From Bacteroidia bacterium (GTDB lineage: Bacteria; Bacteroidota; Bacteroidia; AKYH767-A; OLB10): DNA of 64,000 nucleotides. The stretch is taken from contig JBBQED010000004.1 in assembly GCA_038320345.1 (NCBI GenBank), positions 256,678-320,677 of the forward strand, written 5' to 3'. Position numbers and translations under genes: made by a program. The notes beneath the pieces were generated by a model. The model made no database searches and was not told where the DNA came from. It was given only the letters and a program-made list of their open reading frames with translations. This document shows, piece by piece, positions 48,287 through 61,168 of the stretch. How positions within the stretch are numbered: position 1 is the first letter of the stretch; the number at the start of each line of letters is the position of its first letter.

Positions 48287-50512
48287 ATGTGTTTCCGGCA
48301 GAATTACTCCCTACTAGTATTTCTTGCATTGATGTATCTCTTTTGTGGGATTCAACATGCAATTCGCAAATCCTTCAGGATTTTTGTGCTTGCAATATTT
48401 TCCATCTCGATTTTATTTTCGGTTGAAGTAATCGCTCAAGAGGATCCTGATTTTCTAAATCTACTCAACGACTCAGTAAGTTCAGGAAATTTTTTACAAC
48501 CCAAACATTCCGGTCGTAAGTTTCCATTTAGTGGTAACGAACTTATCAATCGTAAACGATTAGAAGCAGCTACGCGAAATGAAAACTTTCGTGGAATTGC
48601 CACAGCTGCTGCAAACTTGGGTTGGATTCAGATTAATAAAAGTAATCCTGCTGCCGCTATACCGTATTTTAAGAAATCACTGGAGGCAAATCAGCAAAAT
48701 AAAGACAATAAAGGAATCGGTGCTTCCTACATTGAACTTGGTATTGCAACTCAACAAATCAAGGATGAATTTCATGCAGTAGAATATTTTTCAGCAGCAT
48801 TGCCTTATATCGAAAAACAAAAATTAAATAAGGTAAGTGGCTTTTGTTATGCTATGATTGCACAATCCTATGCGCGACAAAAAGATCCTATTAAATCAGG
48901 AGAATATTACTCTCGTGCGTCGAAATCTTTTCTTGCTGCTGGAGATAAAATTCAGGCTGCAGCATGCTTGAATTTATTGGGTGAAACACAACTCCGATTT
49001 AATGATTACAAGAAAGCTTCTGGTAATCTAAATGCAGCTCTGGAGTTGGCCTCAAAGAGTTCAAAAGATAAAAAAATGCAGGCCGTCATCTTGCGAAATC
49101 TTGGTCTAGTGTATTTTAAGAAAGGTGAATTTGAAAATGCTATTTCCTATTTCAATAAAAGTCTTGCTGCAGATGAACAACTCCTCGTTTTAAAGTTGGT
49201 CAAAGATGCCTACATGCAATTATTTACCATGTTTAGTTTCAGAAATGATTTTGTAAAAGCCGATCAGTTCCACGATAAATATAGAGAGCTCAAAGATCAA
49301 CTGGATAAACGAGATGCTGGAAAAAAACCTGCTCTACTTACTGCCGCAGAAGCCGCAGATAAGCAAAGTGTGATTGAAATGTTGCAAAGGCAAATGGAAG
49401 AACAGTCCTTGCAAATGAATCAACATCAGCTGGAACTGAGTCAGATGATTACTAAAGCAGATATCGAGCTGCAAACAATGAATCAGGAGATTGAACAGAA
49501 AGATCAGAAAGTAAAAGAACTCGAAGAGCAAAAGGTAAAAAATGAACGTGATTTAGCAAGACAAGAATTAAGGATTAGTCGTCAGAATAGCTTCCGTAAT
49601 TTACTTATCGCCATCACCATTGCTGTACTGCTCTTAACACTCTTGCTTTACAACCGTTTTAAATTAAAGCAAAAAGCAAACATCCATCTCGAACACTCCA
49701 ATAAAGAAATTGCTATTGCGATGGATGAACTTAAAAAAGCTCAGGATCGCTTAATTCAGAGTGAAAAGATGGCTTCTCTCGGACAGCTAACAGCAGGCAT
49801 TGCACATGAAATTCAGAACCCGCTCAATTTTGTAAATAATTTTAGTGAGTCTTCTATGATGATGTTGGATGATTATATAGCAACAAAAGATGAAACAGAA
49901 CGAGATGAAATTGGGCAAGAATTAAAAGACAATTTAACGCGTATCCGTCATCATGGTGGCCGAGCTGATAAAATCGTGAAGCATATGCTCCAGCATTCCA
50001 GATCAGGGACTTCTGAAAAAGAAATCAGTGATATTAACCGGATCTGCGAAGAAACATCTGAACTAGCTTACCACGGAGCGCGAGCCAGCCTCAGCGAATT
50101 CCACTGTAATGTAGTAAAGCATTTCGATGATACGCTTCCTCCTGTGATGGTCAACCGTCAGGATCTCAGCAGGGTGCTCGTAAATCTCCTGAACAATAGC
50201 TTTTATGCTATGCATCGTAAAATAAAATCAGATCCAAGTGGTAATTACCAGCCGGAGCTTAATATCTTTACGACGCAGAAAGAGAATCTGGTGGTCATCA
50301 CGGTCCGAGATAACGGTACTGGGATACCGAAACAAGTACAGGAAAAGATCTTCAATCCTTTCTTTACTACCAAGCCTACCGGTGAAGGAACTGGACTAGG
50401 ACTAAGTATGAGTTATGATATTCTAACCAAAGGGCATAACGGCAAACTAGAAATGGAAAGCGAAGAAGGAGTATTCACGGAATTCCGGATTTCAATTCCG
50501 ATAACTATTTAA
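48287..50512 (+). CDS. Membrane sensor histidine kinase with periplasmic TPR repeats and coiled coil
   Basis: TPR-like repeats; TM; '[23 protein letters not shown]'; 'NLLNN', 'DNGTG', 'FFTTK', 'GTGLGL'. Exact start uncertain. Confidence 0.9.
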
Positions 50513-50528
50513 TATTTGTTGTACTGAT

Positions 50529-50906
50529 ATGAGCGTTAAAATTTTAGTGGTAGATGATGAGAGCGATGTAGAATTACTCTTTCGTCAGCGGTTTCGAAAA
50601 CTAATTAAAGACAAGGAAATAGATTTTTTCTTTGCCTTCTCAGGTGAACAAGCTTTAGATTATCTTAAAACACTGGATCCTCTTGATGTAGCCTTAATTT
50701 TATCAGATATCAATATGCCGGGCATGTCGGGATTTGAATTACTGAAGAAAGTAAAAGATAATTATCCAGAGATGCGCGTGATGATGGTTACGGCATATGG
50801 AGATCCGGAAAACCAAGAACGTGCTAAAGTACTGGGTGCCGATGATCTGCTTTCTAAACCTCTCGATTTTTCTCTCCTTGATGAAAAGCTGGCTAATCTG
50901 AAATAA
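50529..50906 (+). CDS. Single-domain response regulator
   Basis: 'ILVVDDE', 'SDINMPGMSG', 'VTAYG', 'KP'. Confidence 0.9.
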   Translation: MSVKILVVDDESDVELLFRQRFRKLIKDKEIDFFFAFSGEQALDYLKTLDPLDVALILSDINMPGMSGFELLKKVKDNYPEMRVMMVTAYGDPENQERAKVLGADDLLSKPLDFSLLDEKLANLK

Positions 50907-52493
50907 ATGAGCGATTACGTCCCACATATCTTAGTTGTTGACGATGAACCCGATTTGGAGTTACTTGTGAAGCAACGTTTCCGTAAGCAGATTAAAGATG
51001 GTGCATATACCTTCAGCTTTGCATTGAATGGAAAGCAGGCGATTGATATCTTGAAAGAAAAAATTGATATCAGAGTTATGATGACGGATATTAATATGCC
51101 GGTGATGGATGGACTAACGTTACTGAATGAACTAAAATCAATAGATCGTCCAGTAAAGGCTATCGTTGCTTCTGCATATTCTGATCTGGTAAATATTCGT
51201 ACTGCCATGAATCGCGGTGCTTTCGATTTTGTTACTAAACCTATTGATTTCGTTGATCTCGAAACTACTTTACAAAAAACTATTCGTGAGCAACAACTGA
51301 TCTATGCAGGACAAGAGGCCCAGCAAAATCTAACATCCGCCATTACTGCAAAAGAAGCTGCTGAAGAAAGTGCACAGTTTAAGCAACAGTTCCTTGCAAA
51401 TATGAGTCATGAGATTCGCACTCCATTAAATGCTGTGGTGGGAATGACGAATTTACTCCTTGATAAAGGGCCTAGAGATGATCAGATGCGTTATCTCACA
51501 GCGATGAAACAGGCCTCTCAGAATTTATTGGGAATCATTAACGATATTCTTGATATCTCAAAAATTGAAGCGGGAAAAGTTACACTCGAAAAAATAGATT
51601 TTAATTTAAAAGCGACTGTTGATGGTGTGTATCAAACTCTGCACCTGAAGGCCGAAGAAAATAAATTAAATTTCAACTACGAAATCGATCCATCACTTCC
51701 AGTATACATTAAAGGTGATCCAACGCGCTTGTCACAGATCATCACCAACCTAAGTGGGAATGCTATTAAATTTACTCCGGAAGGTGGTACTATTACCATT
51801 CGATGTTTTCCTGAGAGTCCGGTAAATGAAAATCCTATTCTCATCAAATTTGAAGTAGAAGATACTGGCATTGGCATTTCTCTGGATCAGTTGAGTAAAA
51901 TTTTTGAAAGCTTCACCCAGGAAAGTAGCGACACTACTCGCAAATATGGCGGTACTGGTTTAGGCTTAAGCATCAGTAAACAGCTGGTGGAATTACAAGA
52001 AGGAGAAATGTCGGTGAAGAGTACCAAAGGTAAAGGCACCACCTTCATATTTAAAATTCCTTATGATGCAGGCGAAGCTCCTATCGAAAATAATGAATCG
52101 AAAATTGCAGCGCAATCATTGAGTCGACCATTGTTAATTTTGCTAGCCGAAGATCAGCCGATGAATCAGATGGTGGCAGTAGATACTTTGGAAGGATTAT
52201 TTCCGGGAATCACCATTGATGTGGCGAATAACGGAAAAGAAGCCGTTGACCTTAGTGCAGCAAAAGAATATGATGTCATCCTGATGGATATACATATGCC
52301 GATAATGGACGGCTATGAAGCTTCGAAAACGATTCGTGCCAGTGGTTCGAAGGTGCCCATCGTAGCACTCACTGCTAATGTAATCCGTGAAGAAATTGAT
52401 AAATGCCTCGCCTCGGGGATGGATCGACATCTGGCAAAACCCTTTGATCCCCAACATTTACAGGAGCTGGTATTGAGTTTGGTGAAACCTTAA
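50907..52493 (+). CDS. Cytoplasmic hybrid kinase (REC-HisKA-HATPase-REC)
   Basis: N-terminal REC; '[14 protein letters not shown]'; 'NAIKFT', 'DTGIG', 'GGTGLGL'; C-terminal REC 'LAED...MDIHMP...KP'. Confidence 0.9.
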
Positions 52494-52584
52494 TTTTGAA
52501 GTCAATAAATTAATGATCGGGGATAGTTGTAAACGATCTAACCTAATGAACCTTTTGTATATTCGTGCCTGATTTATAGCCCTG

Positions 52585-52953
52585 ATGACCATGAGTGAAG
52601 ACAGAAAATTAACTGACCTGAGTTATCTCCGAAGCCTTACTAACGGAGCTAATGATAAGATGACAAAATATATCCGGATGTTTTTGACCGGAGCACCAAT
52701 CAGTATTCAGCAAATGGATTTATATTCATTAAGTAAAGACTGGATGGGCGTTAAACAAACGGCACATGCACTGAAACCTCAGCTTGGATATTTTGGCGCA
52801 AAAGGAAGTGAAGATTTATTAAAAGAAATTGAACGCATTGCAGGTGAACAATCTGATCTGGAAAGAATTCCCGCTCACCTAGAAAATTTTCGTAAGCAGT
52901 TTGATCAAATCAGCGCTGAACTAGAAGTGTCGCTGAAAGAACTAGAAAACTAA
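52585..52953 (+). CDS. Hpt (histidine phosphotransfer) protein
   Basis: 'DLSYL', 'AHALKP...G'; helical; within the phosphorelay cluster. Confidence 0.85.
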   Translation: MTMSEDRKLTDLSYLRSLTNGANDKMTKYIRMFLTGAPISIQQMDLYSLSKDWMGVKQTAHALKPQLGYFGAKGSEDLLKEIERIAGEQSDLERIPAHLENFRKQFDQISAELEVSLKELEN

Positions 52954-52961
52954 TTTACCGT

Positions 52962-53486
52962 ATGGCCGATTCTAAACCATCCATCTACATCGTTGACGAT
53001 GAACCTTTGCAAAGAGATATGCTTCAAGATCATCTGAGCAGTATGTCAGGGTATGATACACATTCATTTGCAACCGGAGAGGAATGTCTCGCAGCTATTG
53101 AGGTGCGGAAACCAGCGATTGTATTCTTGGATTATCATCTGAATTCTCAGGTGCGTGATGCGCTCGATGGAATTGATATCCTCAAAGAAATTAAAAAAGT
53201 TAGCCCAGAATCGGAAGTAGTAATGATTTCTGGCCAAGATAAAATTGAAGTTGCCGTAAATACTATGAAATACGGAGCATTCGATTATATTGTAAAGGGA
53301 GAAGGAGCATTTTACCGTGCAGAAAAAACTGTATTCAATATCTACCGCTATAACAAAATGGCAGGAGATGCCAGCCGCTATAAAAAGCTAACGATCGTTT
53401 TTGGGATCGGAATGCTGTTGATGATTATCCTTGTTATTATCCTGCAACAAAAAGGGTTGATTAAAAATAATCCGGGCTGGATGTAA
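52962..53486 (+). CDS. Response regulator with a C-terminal transmembrane helix
   Basis: 'IVDDE', 'LDYHL', 'ISGQ', 'DYIVK', then 'LTIVFGIGMLLMIILVIIL'. Confidence 0.85.
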   Translation: MADSKPSIYIVDDEPLQRDMLQDHLSSMSGYDTHSFATGEECLAAIEVRKPAIVFLDYHLNSQVRDALDGIDILKEIKKVSPESEVVMISGQDKIEVAVNTMKYGAFDYIVKGEGAFYRAEKTVFNIYRYNKMAGDASRYKKLTIVFGIGMLLMIILVIILQQKGLIKNNPGWM

Positions 53487-53625: not shown

Positions 53626-54372
53626 TCAATTCAATTTCAGTTGTGCCGCGCCAATAATTTTGAAAGAATAAGTGTTTTGAAGATATGCGATAATTGCTCT
53701 ATTACCAATAGTAGGCAAGGGATTCGTTTCAAATTTAACTTCTCCTTTCTCTGTTGCCTTTATTGATATAAATTGCTTCACAATATTATGACCTGTTAAA
53801 TTCAATCCTGCGTTTTCTCCCCTTTTTATAGACGTCGTTTCGCTTAAGGATACTAAAGCAAAGTGTATTGTACATTTATCACAATTACCAACTAACTCAT
53901 AGGTCACTTTTAATTCTTTCTTATCGTTAAACAACGCATTTAAATTTTTAAATTTAACTTCAGATTCTAGCGCGAGACTTTCTTTAATAGCCTTTTCTAG
54001 CGCTTTTTCATCTGATCCAACAAACTCACGGGTACCATTAACAACAATTTGTGGTGTATAGCTAGAACGCAAATTAAAATGGTTAACGTATTCACCTTGA
54101 TATTGAGAAAACTGTTTACTGCTAAATGGATCTTTCCAACCTAAATAATTCCAATAATCGACATGAAAGGAGAGCGCAACTATTTTTTTCCCATTTGCTT
54201 CGGCGTTAGAAATAGTTTTAGACAATAAACGGTCAGCAGGTGGGCAACTGGAACAACCTTGTGAAGTAAACAGTTCAAGGACTACTACTGGTTCAAATGT
54301 TAATGCTTTCTTAAAACTTACTAACGGCGTTAAACATATAATCAAGAAAATTAAAATCTTTGTATTCTTCAT
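53626..54372 (-). CDS. DUF1223 family exported thioredoxin-like protein
   Basis: Signal peptide; 'ELFTSQGCSSCPPAD', 'FHVDYWNYLGWKDPFS', 'YTPQ.VVNG', 'RGEN.G'. Confidence 0.9.
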   Translation of the reverse strand: MKNTKILIFLIICLTPLVSFKKALTFEPVVVLELFTSQGCSSCPPADRLLSKTISNAEANGKKIVALSFHVDYWNYLGWKDPFSSKQFSQYQGEYVNHFNLRSSYTPQIVVNGTREFVGSDEKALEKAIKESLALESEVKFKNLNALFNDKKELKVTYELVGNCDKCTIHFALVSLSETTSIKRGENAGLNLTGHNIVKQFISIKATEKGEVKFETNPLPTIGNRAIIAYLQNTYSFKIIGAAQLKLN

Positions 54373-54641
54373 AGCGTTTTTAAATAATAGCACTAAACAT
54401 TCCAACTCCTTCATTCTTAGCAGAACCAGAAACACCTAAGATTACACCATTAACGTTTATCCAATTCTATATTCTGCAATTAGGCTATAAGCTCATTTTC
54501 AAATCTATTAGTTCAATCAGTTAAACCCGCTTTTAACTAGTTGCATTATGACATCGCCTTAACAGCAGTAAACGCTTCAATTATTTTTATAGTTAATGGA
54601 AATGCGGAGATGAAATTCTGCAATTGCTCGCATTGCTAGAG

Positions 54642-55277
54642 TTATTTGTAATTCGTTTTAAAATCTTTTTTGAATTCCATAAATTCAGGAATGGATACAT
54701 TACGCACATATCCTTCATTAGGATGATTGTGAATATATTCTTGATGATATTCTTCAGCAGGATAAAACATTTTAAACGGCATAACTTCAGTTACAATTTT
54801 CCCGGCGAATTTTTTTGAATCAGTGAGTCGTTTGATTTCCACAGTGATAATTTGTTTTTCATGCTCATTGCGATAAAAAGCAACAGATCTATATTGAGTA
54901 CCTTCATCATTTCCTTGACGGTTTAAGGTGGTGGGATCTTGGCTTGCAAAGAATGCTTTTACCAGCGTTTCATAAGAAATTTTTGAAGGGTCGTAATACA
55001 CCTGAACAGCCTCTGCATGTCCTGTTGAACCTGAACAAACTTTTTCATAGCTAGGTTGGGCTTCGTATCCACCGGAGTAGCCTGACACGGCATCACGAAC
55101 ACCTACCAAACTTTGAAACACAATTTCAGAGTGCCAGAAACAACCTTCCGCAAATGTTGCAACCTGCTCATTGCTGGTTTTTTGATTTGAACCTAATGGA
55201 AATTGTTCACTTTTACTTTGGGAGTTTACGCAAGAACTAAAACTTAGCATTGCGATAAATAGGGAAAGAATTTTCAT
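54642..55277 (-). CDS. msrA: Peptide methionine sulfoxide reductase A, lipoprotein
   Basis: 'GCFW', 'SGYSGG', 'GHAE', 'RQGND.GTQYRS', 'AEEYHQ'; lipobox-like 'SFSSC'. Confidence 0.92.
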   Translation of the reverse strand: MKILSLFIAMLSFSSCVNSQSKSEQFPLGSNQKTSNEQVATFAEGCFWHSEIVFQSLVGVRDAVSGYSGGYEAQPSYEKVCSGSTGHAEAVQVYYDPSKISYETLVKAFFASQDPTTLNRQGNDEGTQYRSVAFYRNEHEKQIITVEIKRLTDSKKFAGKIVTEVMPFKMFYPAEEYHQEYIHNHPNEGYVRNVSIPEFMEFKKDFKTNYK

Positions 55278-55284
55278 ATATTTT

Positions 55285-55821
55285 TTATTTTGATTTAACT
55301 GGGGGTGTACCACCTTCTGGAACGAATATTAGCGCAGCTGAATTCATACAATATCTTTTTCCTGTTGGCGCAGGTCCATCATCAAAAACATGTCCGAGGT
55401 GAGAACCACTTTTACTATCCACAACTTCTGTGCGTGTCATACCATCGCTTTGATCAACAATCAATCGCACTGCATCTGGATTGATTGCTGCAAAAAAACT
55501 TGGCCATCCCGTTCCAGAATCAAATTTTGCTTCAGAACTAAAAAGTGGTTGATAGGTGGCAGCAGAATAATATGTTCCTTTTTCATAGAAATGATCATAT
55601 TTTCCTGATCCAGCACGTTCCGTCCCTGCTTCTCGCAATATGTAGTATTGCTCATCAGTTAACTTCATTTTCCACTCTGCTTCTGATAGCTGTATTGGAT
55701 AAACTGTTTTATTAGTAGCAACTGAAGGATCTGGATACATTTTATTTTGAGATTGTACATTATCACATCCCATGCTTAGGAATGCAATTGTTATAATTAA
55801 AATTGCTTGAATTTTCACCAT
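55285..55821 (-). CDS. msrB: Peptide methionine (R)-sulfoxide reductase B, Zn-free, lipoprotein
   Basis: 'GTE', '[11 protein letters not shown]', '[19 protein letters not shown]'; lipobox-like 'LSMGC'. Confidence 0.92.
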
Positions 55822-56025
55822 GATTTATTTTTTTAGAATCAGTTTTTGATAATTTGAATATATTGTGCTTGAAGAATGAATTAAATGTGTTTGGAGTATT
55901 GTAATGAATAATTTGAGTTTGTATTATTTCAATTGAGATTGTCGTCAGTAAAAAGCAATTCGAGTATTAGCTTGCTTAGCACCTGAACATTTACATCAAT
56001 TTACGTTTAACTATGTTCCTATAGA

Positions 56026-56062
56026 TGCAAAACAACGTATAAAGTATCACAAAATGATCACG
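56026..56062 (-). promoter_or_regulatory. Direct-repeat operator plus TTTG promoter element upstream of msrB-msrA
   Basis: Minus strand CGTGATCATTTTGTGATAC-TTTATACGTTGT-TTTGCA; same layout as 60683-60719. Confidence 0.65.
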
Positions 56063-56214
56063 AAACAATTGAATTATAGAAAAACGCCTTTTTAATATTG
56101 AAATTTACATTATCCAAACAAACATTACGATGAGAACACTGCAATCTTCAAGCCTAGTGACTTAAATAAAAATAGGATTTCAAGTTTACAAATAAGGTCT
56201 AATTATTACTTCTC

Positions 56215-57027
56215 TTATAGTGAAGCATCATAAACATACCCGCGTTCAAACCAGTAATCACGGGGAGGGGTATCTGAAAAATAAATATACCCGATACGTT
56301 TTAAATTTTTGACACCGTACTTCACTGGAATTATTAGCCGTAATGGATAACCCTGATTCATTGGTAATGGTTTTTCGTTTAGCTCATAACACAAAATAGT
56401 TTGAGATTGCAACATGCTTTTCATATCAATCCCAACGTAGTATTGGCTATCTGGTGTCATTAATCCGACGTATTTGTATAAATCTTCGGGATGATTTGTG
56501 TCAATGGCCTTACCGCTATGCGTTCCTAATTTATATTTTCTTATAAAATCAGTAAAATTAATTCCGCCCCAATAAGTAATTTGATTCCAACCTTCAATAC
56601 ATTTAAAATCAAAAACCAAATCCCGTTTAGGCATGGAGGTAATATCTTTCATTGTTAATTCCAAGGTTGAATCAGGTGACGAGCTTTCGGGATGGCGATT
56701 GATGATAAGTTTCCAAGCGTCTGGATTAAAGTCATTACTCATGCCTATTTTTCCATTAACACGAGCTATTTTTGCTGCCATACTTTTAGGGTATTCACGT
56801 GCTAAATTCATCTTATTAAAAACAACATTATTCACCTTTTCATTTACCTTTAACACCGTGCGTAAAGGCTTCAAAGCTCCTTCCTCCCTAGGTTGGTTTC
56901 TTAACCATTTCCAACTAACTACTGAAAGAGTAAAAAATAGTATCAATACCGAAAACGACAAAATTGTTTTTCTCTGAATGTATTGATTTAATTTTTTTTC
57001 TTGTTGATGGTCTTGATTTGTTTCCAT
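56215..57027 (-). CDS. Molybdopterin-dependent oxidoreductase, sulfite oxidase family (MsrP/YedY-like)
   Basis: Mo-ligand 'FKCIEGW', 'GYPLRLIIPVKYGVKNLKRI', 'DYWFERGY'; N-terminal hydrophobic helix. Confidence 0.85.
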   Translation of the reverse strand: METNQDHQQEKKLNQYIQRKTILSFSVLILFFTLSVVSWKWLRNQPREEGALKPLRTVLKVNEKVNNVVFNKMNLAREYPKSMAAKIARVNGKIGMSNDFNPDAWKLIINRHPESSSPDSTLELTMKDITSMPKRDLVFDFKCIEGWNQITYWGGINFTDFIRKYKLGTHSGKAIDTNHPEDLYKYVGLMTPDSQYYVGIDMKSMLQSQTILCYELNEKPLPMNQGYPLRLIIPVKYGVKNLKRIGYIYFSDTPPRDYWFERGYVYDASL

Positions 57028-57032
57028 ACTAA

Positions 57033-57842
57033 TTAAGATTGATCGAGGTTAGGATTGTTTTCATCTAATCCAACAGCTTTATTTGCTTTGGGATCCTCTA
57101 TAATTATATCCTCATGAATGGTAGTATCAGTCCCACGGACTTTAATTGCAACGTATGATTTTTCCGGTACTAAAGAATTCTCAATTCCAGAAATATTTTC
57201 CACTTCAAAACCTGTAACCATGGCACTAAAGTTTTTCCATCCGGCTCGAACTACTTGAGCAATATGTATTACAAAAAATAAAACATACCCGATTGTAAGA
57301 ATGAAATGTTCTATACGAGCCCATTCGTATCCACCGAGTAAAAATGCAATCCCTCCAAATTGAATAGGTTTGTAAATTACTATTCCAGTCACCAGAGAAC
57401 CAAATCCCATGATGATGATTAATGAGTAGGCGATTTTTTGCGCACCATTATATCTTAATTGAGGAGGTTTGAATTTGCTTAAATGTAAATCATGCAATAA
57501 AACTTGTTTAGCTTCTTTAAATGATTTTTTGTTAGGTAATAAATATTTCCATTCACCTGAAAATGCAGTATATAAAACGTACAAAAGACCATTAATTGCA
57601 AAAATCCACATAAATACAAAGTGAAAAGCCATTCCATCCGCCAGGTGAAACGGAACATTTAAGGCTTTATAAAATGAATCAGGGAATAATATAAGAATTG
57701 TTTGATCTCCCCAACCTATGTCATATACATCATTAGCCCAATAAATCAATAGACCGCTCCAAATCATCACTCCAAGCACAGGAAAGTTAATCCAATGAAA
57801 CCATCTTACGGCAAGTGGATGTTTATTTTTAATTCGTTTCAT
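57033..57842 (-). CDS. Di-heme cytochrome b subunit (Ni/Fe-hydrogenase/thiosulfate reductase cytochrome b family)
   Basis: 'HPLAVRWFHWIN', 'SGL.IY', 'FHF', 'YNGAQKIAY', 'AR..HF', 'HI'; four TM helices. Confidence 0.85.
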   Translation of the reverse strand: MKRIKNKHPLAVRWFHWINFPVLGVMIWSGLLIYWANDVYDIGWGDQTILILFPDSFYKALNVPFHLADGMAFHFVFMWIFAINGLLYVLYTAFSGEWKYLLPNKKSFKEAKQVLLHDLHLSKFKPPQLRYNGAQKIAYSLIIIMGFGSLVTGIVIYKPIQFGGIAFLLGGYEWARIEHFILTIGYVLFFVIHIAQVVRAGWKNFSAMVTGFEVENISGIENSLVPEKSYVAIKVRGTDTTIHEDIIIEDPKANKAVGLDENNPNLDQS

Positions 57843-57880
57843 TAGTGTTTTAGGATTTTGCCTACTTCATATAAAATTAT

Positions 57881-59353
57881 CTAATTACTTTGATCAACCG
57901 GAAGGTGGAAGGTAAAGGTACTACCGATGTTTACTTGCGTTTGCAATTCGAGGGAAGAATGGTGAAGGTCGAGTATTTTTTTTACGATTGCTAATCCTAA
58001 TCCTGTAGTGTTCTTGGTATTGATAAAGTGATTTGCCTTGTAATAGCGTCCGAAAATTTGGTCCCGCTCGTTTTCAGGTATTCCAATTCCAGTATCTGTA
58101 ACTGAAACTTCCACTTCATGACCATTTTTGCAAGTCTTGATTATTATTTTCCCACCAGCGGGTGTAAATTTCAATGCATTGTCAATAAGGTTTTGCATAA
58201 CGCGCTCAATGAGTGCAACATCTGCAAATACAAAAGGTAATTCTTTGGATAGCACTGTGTGGATGGAGATGTTCTTAGCATTTGCAATCAATTGATATTT
58301 ACCGCTGATATCATTAATAAGCTCACTGATAAAAAATGGTTCTTTTTTAGGTTCCACTTGGTTAGCCTCTAATTTTGATAACTCAAAAAGTTCTGATACT
58401 AGTTTTTCTAATTTAACAGTGCTTTCTGAGATAGTTTGGAGAAAACGTTTACGTTCTTCAACCGTAAGCGTATCAGCTTTTATTTGTAAGGTTTCAATAT
58501 AACCCTGTATGATGGAAATAGGTGTTCTTAAATCATGTGAAACATTGGCTACTAATTCACGTCTTAAAATTTCCACTTGCTCCAATTTTTCCACATTGCT
58601 TGTTAAAATGTCAGCCATTTCGTTAAAAATAATCGCCATTTGTTCCAAATCACCTGTTGATTGTACTTTAACCCGTGCATTTAAATCACCTTCCCGAAAT
58701 TTTTGCATCACTTCAATAATCCTAGAAAAATTATTGGTGATCACACGAATAATAATAAGTCCAACTAAAAAAGTAGCCAGTAAAGTAAGAATCATAGTTT
58801 GCGAACCCACTTGCAATAAATAACTACGAGAAACCCTCTTAGATTCTACATCGAATTCTTCTCCAGCAAGCACCACATAAATATATCCCGATTGGATACC
58901 ATTACTTATGACAGGAGCTGCAGAAAATATTTTATCTACTCCAGGATGACGCGGGTCATTTCCAGTTACAAATTGCTCTCCTAAGGTGCTAATAAAGATT
59001 TTTACTGGAGTTAAATTTATTTTATCAAGAACAATTTTCTTTTCAGGTGCATAATAAGATAAAATTTTACCCTCATTATTTAAAAGGTAAACCTCCAAAC
59101 TTGGATTGATGGACATGATATGATCAAATGTTTCCTCCATCGCTTTTTCATTTATCTTACCATTCGTGAATGGAGTAGAATGTCTGGCAATATCCGCAGC
59201 AATACTTTTATTCAAATGTTGATTGACTTCTTTAAAATAGAGGCTTGAATAATGAAGTGTTATAAAAACATAAGCAAGACCGATGAATCCCAACAGTACA
59301 AAGAATACCGCTGAGATTCGCCAGAATAAATTATTGAATTTACTTTTTGACAT
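57881..59353 (-). CDS. HAMP-domain sensor histidine kinase
   Basis: Two TMs around a periplasmic domain; HAMP; 'ANVSHDLRTP'; 'NLIDNALKF', 'DTGIG', 'TGLGL'. Confidence 0.9.
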   Translation of the reverse strand: MSKSKFNNLFWRISAVFFVLLGFIGLAYVFITLHYSSLYFKEVNQHLNKSIAADIARHSTPFTNGKINEKAMEETFDHIMSINPSLEVYLLNNEGKILSYYAPEKKIVLDKINLTPVKIFISTLGEQFVTGNDPRHPGVDKIFSAAPVISNGIQSGYIYVVLAGEEFDVESKRVSRSYLLQVGSQTMILTLLATFLVGLIIIRVITNNFSRIIEVMQKFREGDLNARVKVQSTGDLEQMAIIFNEMADILTSNVEKLEQVEILRRELVANVSHDLRTPISIIQGYIETLQIKADTLTVEERKRFLQTISESTVKLEKLVSELFELSKLEANQVEPKKEPFFISELINDISGKYQLIANAKNISIHTVLSKELPFVFADVALIERVMQNLIDNALKFTPAGGKIIIKTCKNGHEVEVSVTDTGIGIPENERDQIFGRYYKANHFINTKNTTGLGLAIVKKILDLHHSSLELQTQVNIGSTFTFHLPVDQSN

Positions 59354-60056
59354 TTGATTTGAATTCATCAGTAAACCGATACCCAATTCCCCAAGTTGTT
59401 AAAATGTATATTGGTTTACTCAAATCCGATTCAATTTTAGCGCGTAAACGATTGATATGAGAGTTTACGGTGTGATCATATCCGGCAAATTCATAACCCC
59501 AAACAAGGTTCAGTAAATTTTCACGTGAATAGCTTTTGCCTGGATTGGTAATAAACAAATAAAGCAAATCAAATTCTTTAGGGGTGAGCTCGATTTTATT
59601 CTTGCCCAGTAATACTTTTCTTTTTTGAATATCTACAGTTAGCTCACCCGAATATACTATTTCATTCGAAATTTCTAGAACATTTTTATTTATTTCTGTT
59701 CGACGTAAAATTGCTTTAACCCGCGCAATAAATTCACGAATACTGAATGGTTTGGTGAGGTAATCGTCTGCCCCTGTTTCTAATCCAATCACTTTATCAA
59801 TTTCTTCGGCGCGGGCGGTTAACATCATGATCGGAGTTGCAATATTTTCAACACGTAGTTTTTTGCAAATTTCGATTCCACTAATGTCCGGTAAATTGAT
59901 GTCCAGAATAATTAAGTCAAAAGTTTTCGTAAGTGCATGTTTGATCCCGTCTATACCGTTATTCGCTTTAGTAGTTATACAATGAATGTCTTTTAAATGA
60001 ATTTCGACTAATTCTAGAATGTCTTGATCATCTTCAATCATTAAGATGTTTTTCAT
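59340..60056 (-). CDS. OmpR/PhoB family response regulator
   Basis: 'IEDD', 'LDINLP', 'GADDYLTKPF', winged helix 'LTPKEFDLL', 'TVNSHINRLR.KIE', 'T.WG.GY'. Confidence 0.92.
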   Translation of the reverse strand: MKNILMIEDDQDILELVEIHLKDIHCITTKANNGIDGIKHALTKTFDLIILDINLPDISGIEICKKLRVENIATPIMMLTARAEEIDKVIGLETGADDYLTKPFSIREFIARVKAILRRTEINKNVLEISNEIVYSGELTVDIQKRKVLLGKNKIELTPKEFDLLYLFITNPGKSYSRENLLNLVWGYEFAGYDHTVNSHINRLRAKIESDLSKPIYILTTWGIGYRFTDEFKSNVKK

Positions 60057-60215
60057 TTTTTGTGCGACTATTTATAAATCTATGCAAATCTGCTAAATGG
60101 AGCCGAAACATAAAACTAATGAATTCTTGGAAAATTTTATAAAATGTGATAAAAAGAACAACGATACTTTAATGCCACCTTTTTCGATGCACCTAAAGTA
60201 AGAAAATGCTTTCAC

Positions 60216-60644
60216 TTACATTTTACTGTGCATCGGACAACTTTCGTTGCACAGATGTCCTGTTACATCATGAGGAATCATAGATATTTTGCCATCTTTC
60301 CCAATCATGCTGCCATTCATCAATTTCATAGTGGAACCATCCGCTTTTGTAACGGTTCCGTTTGTAGAAACCTTGGCACCACTACTTGTTGTGTAAATTT
60401 TTGTAAGGGGTGTACAGGTATTATTACTGCATACCATTGTTTTATTGTTAACCATCATCACGCCATCTCCCATTTTCATCGTTTTGCCGTCCATCATTTT
60501 CCCATCCTGCATTTTGTTATCCATTTTGGAATCGTTCATTTTGGCGGGTTCGCTTGTTGAGCCACTCATTTTTGAGCCTGAAGATTGAGCAAAAACGTTC
60601 GCTAAAAATAGAATTGCAAATGCTGTCAAAAGTAATTTTTTCAT
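60216..60644 (-). CDS. Secreted methionine-rich protein (DUF6799-like)
   Basis: 19-aa signal peptide; 'KMNDSKMDNKMQDGKMMDGKTMKMGDGVMM'; 'G.KV.TNGTV...DG'; C-terminal 'CNESCPMH'. Confidence 0.75.
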   Translation of the reverse strand: MKKLLLTAFAILFLANVFAQSSGSKMSGSTSEPAKMNDSKMDNKMQDGKMMDGKTMKMGDGVMMVNNKTMVCSNNTCTPLTKIYTTSSGAKVSTNGTVTKADGSTMKLMNGSMIGKDGKISMIPHDVTGHLCNESCPMHSKM

Positions 60645-60682
60645 TTTTTTTAGATTTTAATTGTTTGTTCACTTAATTTGAT

Positions 60683-60719
60683 TGCAAACATCTACTTTAA
60701 GTATAACGAAAGTATCACG
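60683..60719 (-). promoter_or_regulatory. Direct-repeat operator plus TTTG promoter element upstream of the Met-rich gene
   Basis: Minus strand CGTGATACTTTCGTTATAC-TTAAAGTAGATG-TTTGCA; same layout as 56026-56062. Confidence 0.65.
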
Positions 60720-61168
60720 GAAGGATAAACTTTTAAAAACTATCAAACTGACAGCAACCACCATTATTTTTAAAAAAATGTAAAAAGTAAAGTATTAAGG
60801 TTACATAAAATTGCACAATATCCACTCTTACCCGTTTAAAATTTGTTTATCTGCATCTATATTATTCTACCAAATTACTAACCCGTTGGGAAGGAAAAAT
60901 TGGCATGAATTGTTTTTAAAAATTCAATCCTACAATAAAAACAATTGTACATTAATATGTTCCACGCACAAATTTACACCTCTACTAATTGAAATTCGTA
61001 CCACATACATTGAACATCGAACTTAAAGCCTTAACCAATGAAAAACAAAAAACATGGAAAGGAGTATTCGCCTCGATAATAAGAAAATTCGCATTTCGAA
61101 GGTAAGTTGTGGTCAATATTTGATTAGTACGTAAGAATAGATTAGGTTTGTTCAAACTAAACAGCACT

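Follow-up and report, generated by a model that had tools for sequence, protein, structure and literature searches.

A conserved two-component-linked gene cluster as a candidate defence of the envelope against methionine oxidation in a Bacteroidia bacterium

To our knowledge, the repair of oxidised methionine (Met) in the bacterial envelope is understood almost exclusively from work in Proteobacteria, namely on MsrPQ, MrpX and HprSR. Envelope MsrA and MsrB can also be fed by a thioredoxin-like module together with DsbD/CcdA, as in the cases of Neisseria PilB and Streptococcus MsrAB2. In Azospira suillum, SigF/NrsF-MrpX-YedY1/YedZ1 constitute a hypochlorite-scavenging regulon, in which MrpX consists of 20% Met and 44% charged residues; yedY is moreover linked to msrA/msrB, mostly in Proteobacteria (Melnyk et al., 2015; PMC4436054; here and below, the papers on these systems are cited from their accessible parts). 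In Escherichia coli, the two-component system HprSR (YedVW) controls MsrPQ (10.1101/2021.09.09.459708). Sco3746-type proteins combine four haem-b helices with conserved His, an arginine motif, a Tat-dependent fifth helix and an outside-facing molybdenum cofactor (Moco) domain; the accessible part of the paper lists them in Actinobacteria, Firmicutes, Chloroflexi and Euryarchaeota, not in Bacteroidota, and assigns them no function (Tooke et al., 2017; PMC5449189).

The A. suillum regulon is the closest described system to the gene cluster considered here, which lies in a stretch of 64,000 nucleotides (hereafter the window) from a Bacteroidia bacterium (GTDB lineage Bacteria; Bacteroidota; Bacteroidia; AKYH767-A; OLB10), namely positions 256,678 to 320,677 of the forward strand of contig JBBQED010000004.1 in assembly GCA_038320345.1. 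The eight genes are a real and conserved cluster and appear, with a rough probability of 0.55, to form a mobile and co-regulated unit, in which a two-component system would control two promoters and thereby a defence and repair of the envelope against Met oxidation, with a quinol-fed molybdenum (Mo) route and a thiol route. Protection of the envelope from oxidant or copper damage is probably the role of the cluster; we infer the stress signal, the binding of the regulator to the repeat described below, the reduction of Met-sulfoxide by the Mo protein, the role of the DUF1223 protein as a reductant and the ligand of the Met-rich protein.

The original prediction knew of no characterised example of this combination in Bacteroidota, and no description of such a system in that phylum was found in the openly accessible literature, subscription-only papers being outside the search. 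No literature was found on DUF6799, and none pairing MsrP with a cytochrome b561. Among papers on MsrP/MsrQ naming Bacteroidetes, the phylum is mentioned for another protein; the matches listed for MsrP together with "Bacteroid-" contain, in their accessible parts, no such system; and the word "Bacteroid" does not occur in a 2026 review of sulfoxide reductases.

Gene order, shared operator and transcription units

The cluster comprises eight co-oriented minus-strand genes (53626-60644), as originally described; the limits are those of the open reading frame (ORF) list, and the families were named by Pfam and NCBIfam. In order of transcription, the genes encode a DUF6799 protein, a response regulator, a HAMP kinase, a cytochrome b, a Mo protein, MsrB, MsrA and a DUF1223 protein. 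When the protein sequences are read by eye for signal peptides, lipoboxes and hydrophobic helices, all products except the regulator look exported or membrane-bound, in agreement with the original prediction.

The search for the same gene neighbourhood elsewhere was positive, since all eight genes are found in the same order and with 55-87% amino acid identity in two other genera of the family (loci L117 and L118), and a further locus (L119, on the same contig as L002) holds seven of the eight before the contig ends. The flanking genes are wholly different among the window, L117 and L118, and genes have been inserted in the interval between the Mo and MsrB genes, namely a nitroreductase gene in L117 and, in L118, genes for a protein of unknown function and a Kelch protein. 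Because the order is kept despite the different flanks and the inserted genes, the cluster seems to have been held together while moving between contexts. Its distribution is sparse and patchy: the Mo protein was found in 7 of 251 genomes sampled across the class and, within its own family, in 9 of 83 genomes, which belong to 6 of 23 genera. Three of the four carriers in genus g167 have MsrB, cytochrome b and Mo genes only, the locus of the fourth (L121) stopping just past the cytochrome b gene, and the Mo gene is the sole match to the cluster in genome G280. The AT-richness noted originally is true but modest, with a GC content of 0.342 against a genome mean of 0.379 (sd 0.017; 6,875 windows of the same size, 3.1% of which are at or below 0.342). 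In genome G269, the orthologous cluster has a DDE transposase gene (L117:84-1625) some 5 kb upstream and a PIN-domain gene on its downstream side, as would fit a mobile context. An empty insertion site was sought in relatives at the DUF1223 loci of seven genomes of the family or order; none has flanking genes in common with the window, so that this comparison yielded no point of insertion.

A 21-nt direct repeat, CGTGATAnTTTCGTGATACTT, precedes both the DUF6799 gene and the MsrB gene. Intergenic alignments give the repeat the consensus CGTGATAnTTT-CGTGATACTT, with a spacing of 11 nt, and place it about 10 nt before a conserved TTTGCA (-7-like box). It is kept before DUF6799 and before MsrB in every alignable orthologous cluster (three loci each), the second operator of L118 preceding the inserted Kelch gene, itself ahead of MsrB. 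When a matrix built solely from four sites of other genomes was scanned against the 3.69-Mb genome, the best match of all (28.1 bits) was operator 1 (60699..60719, minus strand, CGTGATACTTTCGTTATACTT), before DUF6799, and the second best (22.8 bits) was operator 2 (56042..56062, minus strand, CGTGATCATTTTGTGATACTT, then TTTTGCA), before MsrB-MsrA-DUF1223. The next matches, C13:57790 and C4:77519 (20.0 and 19.3 bits), are inside coding sequence and were dropped as targets. A degenerate form of the pattern matched twice in the window and not once in 100 shuffles. Since the two sites are the two best matches of the genome, a two-promoter regulon is likely.

Regarding the protein that would bind the repeat, the second gene of the cluster (59340..60056, minus strand) encodes an OmpR/PhoB-family response regulator with PF00072 and PF00486. 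A receiver and winged-helix regulator is thus found together with a predicted operator made of a direct repeat with a spacing of about 11 nt near a promoter. Beside orthologous two-component genes, the repeat reaches at least 18 bits in 8 of 17 further loci, in several of them immediately upstream of the regulator gene, which is what one would expect if the repeat were the operator of this regulator family.

A hairpin region after DUF6799 (60140..60215, minus strand) forms a conserved alignment block; it is of terminator type in the orthologues and weaker in the window, with fold energies of -18.3 (z -3.4) in L117, -20.4 (z -3.1) in L118 and -14.8 (z -2.2) in the window. Partial read-through from DUF6799 past this hairpin into the regulator operon is possible, and the arrangement of a preceding gene followed by regulator and kinase genes is likewise found in L126, L127 and L141. 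The intergenic gaps of 159 nt (DUF6799-regulator), 393 nt (Mo-MsrB) and about 269 nt (MsrA-DUF1223) indicate that the eight genes are not a single tight operon. The last of these gaps (54373-54641) compares with 10-18 nt in orthologues and contains no operator and nothing recognised. A scan for sigma-70 promoters gave 41 sites for 33.7 expected, with a model that is not informative for Bacteroidota promoters, and a terminator scan of the cluster stretch gave no useful terminator.

Such gaps between blocks would also be expected if unrelated envelope genes had merely come to lie side by side without common control, and the sub-modules are indeed separate in most other genomes. This reading was already disfavoured and is most improbable, given the same gene order in four genera with different flanks, an operator that is common to both promoters and unique in the genome, and a DUF1223 tree that tracks linkage rather than taxonomy (see below).

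On the other strand, the cluster is adjoined by a compact phosphorelay set (48287-53486, plus strand, as read from the ORF list), made up of a TPR-like sensor kinase, a single-domain receiver, a hybrid kinase, a possible Hpt protein and a receiver with a C-terminal membrane helix.

The cytochrome b/molybdoprotein pair and the thiol route

The Mo protein (56215..57027, minus strand; 270 aa) is a membrane-anchored SUOX-fold molybdoprotein in which PF00174 (E 1.9e-22) is the sole domain found, and its gene is the only PF00174 gene of the genome. Its structural model (pLDDT 79.7) is assigned a SUOX fold by Foldseek and presents one long predicted N-terminal helix (residues 3-43). By sequence, the closest solved relative is E. 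coli YedY/MsrP (1xdq, E 3.7e-17, versus 3e-8 for SorA), and the invariant Cys143, in FKCIEGW, aligns with RCVEAWS of 1xdq. As in YedY/MsrP, the Mo-ligand Cys motif is carried by a single SUOX domain with no dimerisation domain. Unlike the soluble, Tat-cleaved form of MsrP/YedY, the protein is membrane-anchored, by a helix that matches the fifth helix of fused forms; the arginine motif before this helix is QR in the window and RR in most relatives. TatC is encoded in the genome.

The preceding gene (57033..57842, minus strand) encodes a four-helix cytochrome b of the b561/Ni_hydr_CYTB type (PF01292, E 7.2e-19) with four invariant His (H16, H74, H179 and H193), predicted to be the di-haem quinol-side partner of the Mo protein. 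PF01292 is the only Pfam family that it matches, so that the cytochrome, unlike the haem-b partner of MsrP to which the original prediction referred, is not a member of the MsrQ/YedZ family (Pfam PF01794). The association of the two genes was followed over the best 80 loci from contigs of one genome per species, mostly Chitinophagales. In 76 of these, the cytochrome b gene immediately precedes the Mo gene, and the other four start too near a contig end. The two genes are separate in the window, 5 nt apart; in 23 of 24 longer homologues, PF01292 and PF00174 are fused into a chain of about 480-575 aa that starts with cytochrome b and continues with a linker, an RR-type arginine motif with helix, and the Mo domain. 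Judged by these sequences, the pair is a fixed module, the split form of fused haem-b/Mo proteins, which resembles MsrPQ on paper and is outside that family.

Downstream of the pair, two genes encode lipoprotein methionine sulfoxide reductases. MsrB (55285..55821, minus strand; PF01641, E 1.3e-44; TIGR00357, 168.6 bits for a cut-off of 113.05) is of the one-Cys type, with the lipobox LSMGC, the motif SGTGWPSF and no zinc CxxC pairs. MsrA (54642..55277, minus strand; PF01625, E 1.4e-58; TIGR00401, 184.4 bits for a cut-off of 108.1) has the lipobox FSSC and the catalytic motif GCFWH, and no C-terminal resolving Cys was seen in it; orthologue alignment places its likely start at ATG 55277. The genome has a second MsrA and a second MsrB (C5:271137-271808 and C15:55323-55943), lipoproteins too, which retain the resolving Cys and the zinc sites. 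No cytoplasmic-type MsrA or MsrB was found in the genome by tblastn at 1e-5, so that all four Msr enzymes may be exported. The last gene of the cluster encodes a secreted protein of the DUF1223 family (53626..54372, minus strand, with a likely start at ATG 54372 from orthologue alignment; PF06764, E 1e-54, 186.1 bits for a cut-off of 30.7), which has a signal peptide. A thioredoxin fold is known for DUF1223 (PMC3091736), and DsbD is encoded elsewhere in the genome.

The proposal that the thiol enzymes belong with the Mo pair was supported. An MsrB gene is found upstream of the cytochrome b/Mo pair in 34 of the 67 loci with at least 700 bp of room, ending within 400 bp in 26, and in 31 of 35 pair-linked MsrB, most of which have lipoprotein signals, GTGWPSF replaces the usual resolving-Cys motif. 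DUF1223 adjoins the pair in three of the six other carriers at class level, with no Msr gene there. In a tree of 14 rows (L086 left out, L055 only 35% filled), pair-linked DUF1223 proteins from several families form one clade (support 100/99), apart from the unlinked DUF1223 proteins of the same family and order; the motif GCSSCP is invariant in the pair-linked clade, and CxxC is lost in several unlinked relatives. DUF1223 is thus a CxxC-keeping companion of the pair, within a family background in which it is present in 6 of 6 sampled genomes (same-family tallies, here and below, count the unpublished genome G136).

These associations bear on a different assignment of the pair, which could pass electrons of the respiratory chain to the thiol route, by reducing the sulfenate of MsrB/MsrA or the disulfide of DUF1223, or act on another small S- or N-oxide or on sulfite, without being itself a Met-sulfoxide reductase. 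Such a role is unlikely, even if several features are in line with it: most pair-linked MsrB are exported and without the usual resolving Cys; the MsrA and MsrB of the window are one-Cys enzymes, whereas the second copies keep resolving Cys and zinc sites; DUF1223 adjoins the pair even where an Msr gene is absent; DM13 lipoproteins replace MsrB upstream of cytochrome b in some loci (see below); and the MsrP model is not reached by the Mo protein. To be set against them are the solved structure closest to the Mo protein, which is that of YedY/MsrP with the Cys-x-Glu motif kept, and the availability of DsbD for the thiol route; we also know of no SUOX-fold enzyme that reduces a protein sulfenate or disulfide. 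In its most specific form, equally doubtful, this assignment would make the cytochrome b/Mo pair a recycler driven by the respiratory chain for exported one-Cys MsrB and MsrA, acting on their sulfenates or through DUF1223. If so, it would bring electrons into the thiol repair of the envelope independently of DsbD, under one sensor that also switches on a sacrificial or copper-buffering Met-rich protein, and it would have to run in lineages in which no Moco synthesis genes were found, which would imply scavenging of the cofactor or use of another one.

The sensor, the methionine-rich protein and cofactor supply

The sensor histidine kinase (57881..59386, minus strand; PF00672 HAMP, PF00512 and PF02518) has two hydrophobic membrane helices and a periplasmic domain of about 150 aa. 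The two-component system is not HprSR, with which the original prediction drew a parallel, nor is it a CusSR system, as the cut-offs of the curated models are not reached: the regulator is below all NCBIfam equivalogs (HprR, 150.6 bits for a cut-off of 353; heavy-metal regulator, 172.3 for 279.2), and the kinase scores 146.5 bits with the heavy-metal (CusS-type) sensor model, for a cut-off of 292.55. Orthologues of the sensor domain are found in 19 of 251 genomes of the class. In one of these systems (genome G007), the orthologous regulator (56% identity) and kinase (48%) are found with a Met-poor DUF6799 protein and a lipoprotein MsrB; a 437-aa lipoprotein with a weak Spondin_N match (L103:6541-7854) is encoded between the kinase and DUF6799-MsrB.

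Small lipoproteins with a DM13 ("electron transfer") domain are encoded beside orthologous two-component systems in L131, L134, L137 and L141. In 6 of the 80 loci (e.g., L022:8613-9041), the position of MsrB directly upstream of cytochrome b is taken by a DM13 gene, and both modules may have these lipoproteins as a further client or partner. The common theme of the sensor-linked genes is extracytoplasmic redox proteins, not Msr alone.

The first gene of the cluster (60216..60644, minus strand) encodes a secreted protein of 142 aa with a DUF6799 domain (PF20606, 47 bits for a cut-off of 26.8, E 2.1e-12) and an N-terminal signal peptide. Its Met share is the highest among the 2,993 ORFs of the genome of at least 100 aa (12.1%, for a median of 2.1%) and amounts to 13.9% in the mature part; the C-terminal motif H..GH.C.ESCPMH.KM and the Met repeats are retained in orthologues, which are 70% identical. 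Elsewhere, a DUF6799 protein with 26% Met adjoins MsrB (genome G227). Met-rich members (10-26%) make up 8 of the 20 DUF6799 proteins examined, and four of the eight are shown with the heavy-metal-binding domain PF19335 (paralogues L090, L092, L093 and L094). One of the four belongs to the same genome as the window (L094, C23:3717-4151, 10-11% Met, PF19335 fused); its neighbour is an FMN-reductase-like gene, and the locus showed no operator. Since Met-rich relatives often carry a heavy-metal-binding domain, copper binding rivals the idea of a sink for hypochlorous acid.

In a metal-centred account, the cluster would be a module against copper or silver stress, in which DUF6799 binds periplasmic Cu(I)/Ag(I), the kinase senses the metal, and the Msr and Mo proteins repair oxidised metal-binding proteins. 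This account, tentative and clearly less probable than an oxidant defence, gains from the PF19335-bearing Met-rich relatives, one of which is encoded near an HMA-domain gene, from the His/Cys/Met tail kept in the window protein and its orthologues, which aligns with the first half of PF19335 (CPMH part only), and from the protection of CusF by MsrPQ under copper stress in E. coli (PMC9302797). Conversely, the DUF6799 protein of the window has no Pfam match to PF19335, the cluster holds no copper pump, multicopper oxidase or CusS/CopS-type sensor, and the flanks in three genomes are without metal genes. The two accounts overlap and do not exclude each other; copper binding need not preclude a sacrificial sink, given that CusF, shielded by MsrPQ in copper-stressed E. 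coli, is itself rich in Met. Of the sacrificial Met sink proposed originally, what stands is a secreted, Met-rich protein with an operator upstream; its role as a sink is only one reading, since paralogues with PF19335 point to copper.

Apart from this competition by copper, several observations weigh against an oxidant-defence regulon of the whole cluster. The regulator, kinase, cytochrome b and Mo genes have no operator immediately ahead of them, so that their co-regulation depends on read-through of the hairpin; the single regulon of the original prediction is supported by the conserved order and the operator shared by two promoters, and less so for the Mo route, whose control depends on that read-through. 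An Msr gene is near only 2 of the 18 orthologous two-component systems elsewhere, which adjoin DM13 lipoproteins, Crp-like regulators and a lactonase-like gene; with 16 of 18 having no Msr gene nearby, the regulator family is not Msr-specific. Among the 80 loci, a strong match to the two-component system is found in L002 only, with weak kinase or regulator matches in L032 and L060, and DUF6799 is present in 0, MsrA in 5 and DUF1223 in 3. The Mo protein is not an MsrP equivalog, with 63.9 bits in NF003767 for a cut-off of 207. As for its cofactor, MoaC, MoaE and MoeA were not found in an assembly rated 99.96% complete; in 8 of 15 carriers, the genome of the window being counted among the 15, searches for MoaA and for MoeA were both negative; and MoeA is not clearly enriched in carriers (4/7, versus 107/244 non-carriers in the class sample, the background being 111/251 class genomes).

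The eight carriers in question (G087, G201, G269, G315 and G316-G319) include all four genomes of genus g167, and two of the eight are rated 100% complete. It could be hypothesized from these absences, and from a fold search that also matches pterin-binding PruR proteins (E 5e-7), that the SUOX-fold protein works here without Mo cofactor, as a pterin-binding, non-catalytic protein, or is non-functional. This is improbable, considering that the Mo proteins from genomes without cofactor genes retain every invariant motif, Cys included, that moaA, moeA and moaC are directly upstream of the pair in genome G179, and that XdhC-type genes are near the pair in 7 of the 80 loci. In the genome of the window, contig C39 (1,805 bp) carries a C-terminal fragment of MoaA, truncated at the edge of the contig, and after it a MoaD-like gene whose product ends in GG. 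With a cut MoaA on C39 and MoaC, MoaE and MoeA nowhere, the moa locus seems to be unassembled, and the presence of MoeA in 5 of 6 sampled family members makes an assembly gap the likelier, and simpler, account. The frequent lack of Moco synthesis genes in carriers is a separate puzzle.

Proposed mechanism and comparison with described systems

In the envelope-defence reading, which is preferred here, the HAMP kinase would sense an envelope stress, most likely an oxidant, with reactive chlorine or copper as the leading candidates, and would phosphorylate the OmpR-type regulator. The phosphorylated regulator would bind the direct repeat, which would take the place of the -33 region, and two units would be switched on. 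The first, autoregulated and with a leaky hairpin behind DUF6799, would run from DUF6799 through the regulator and kinase genes to those of cytochrome b and the Mo protein; the second would be MsrB-MsrA-DUF1223. The abundant Met-rich secreted protein would take the hit, as an oxidant sink, a copper buffer or both, and Met-sulfoxide on this and other envelope proteins would be reduced by two routes. In the Mo route, electrons would pass from quinol through the di-haem cytochrome b to the membrane-anchored YedY/MsrP-like Mo domain, so that the pair would do the work of MsrQ-MsrP with a membrane partner of another kind. In the thiol route, the one-Cys lipoproteins MsrB and MsrA would be recycled by the CxxC protein DUF1223, itself kept reduced by DsbD.

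Bacteroidota would then build the same repair logic from other parts: a different type of sensor, whose operator can be defined, a Met-rich protein of another family, and a b561-type cytochrome either split from or fused to a YedY-like domain. The same control would extend to a thiol route that includes a thioredoxin-fold protein from a family without a known function. The cluster offers a concrete candidate pair of regulator and operator, and testable functional hypotheses for DUF6799, for DUF1223 and for the widespread pair of a "molybdopterin-dependent oxidoreductase" and a cytochrome b.

With regard to exported thiol enzymes, the cluster is like the PilB and MsrAB2 systems in having exported MsrA and MsrB with a neighbouring CxxC thioredoxin-fold protein, DsbD being present in the genome. 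It is unlike them in that the thioredoxin-fold partner is a separate DUF1223 protein, of a family of unknown function, and a putative reductant.

The fused homologues of the cytochrome b/Mo pair share the layout of Sco3746, of which the pair in the window would be the split form, a likeness by architecture only. Unlike in the single chain of the Sco3746 type, cytochrome b and Mo protein are encoded by two genes, and QR is found instead of RR before the helix.

As in HprSR-MsrPQ of E. coli, a two-component system would control a quinol-fed periplasmic Mo Met-sulfoxide reductase, with a Met-rich metal chaperone as a client in the E. coli case and a Met-rich protein here. The window system differs in that regulator and kinase are below the models, the operator is another one, no cus genes are present, and the membrane partner belongs to another family.

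The likeness to the A. suillum regulon lies in a small regulon on a mobile island that brings together stress sensing, a secreted Met-rich protein and a Mo reductase of the SUOX family whose membrane partner carries haem b. Unlike the extracytoplasmic function (ECF) sigma/anti-sigma pair of A. suillum, the sensor in the window is a two-component system. The Met-rich protein belongs to DUF6799, with 12-14% Met and a His/Cys/Met tail, and has no family model in common with MrpX. The Mo protein has a membrane anchor and falls short of the MsrP model, and its partner belongs to PF01292 and not to YedZ/MsrQ. Finally, the cluster belongs to Bacteroidota and not to Proteobacteria, and its regulon would add the thiol route of MsrB, MsrA and DUF1223.

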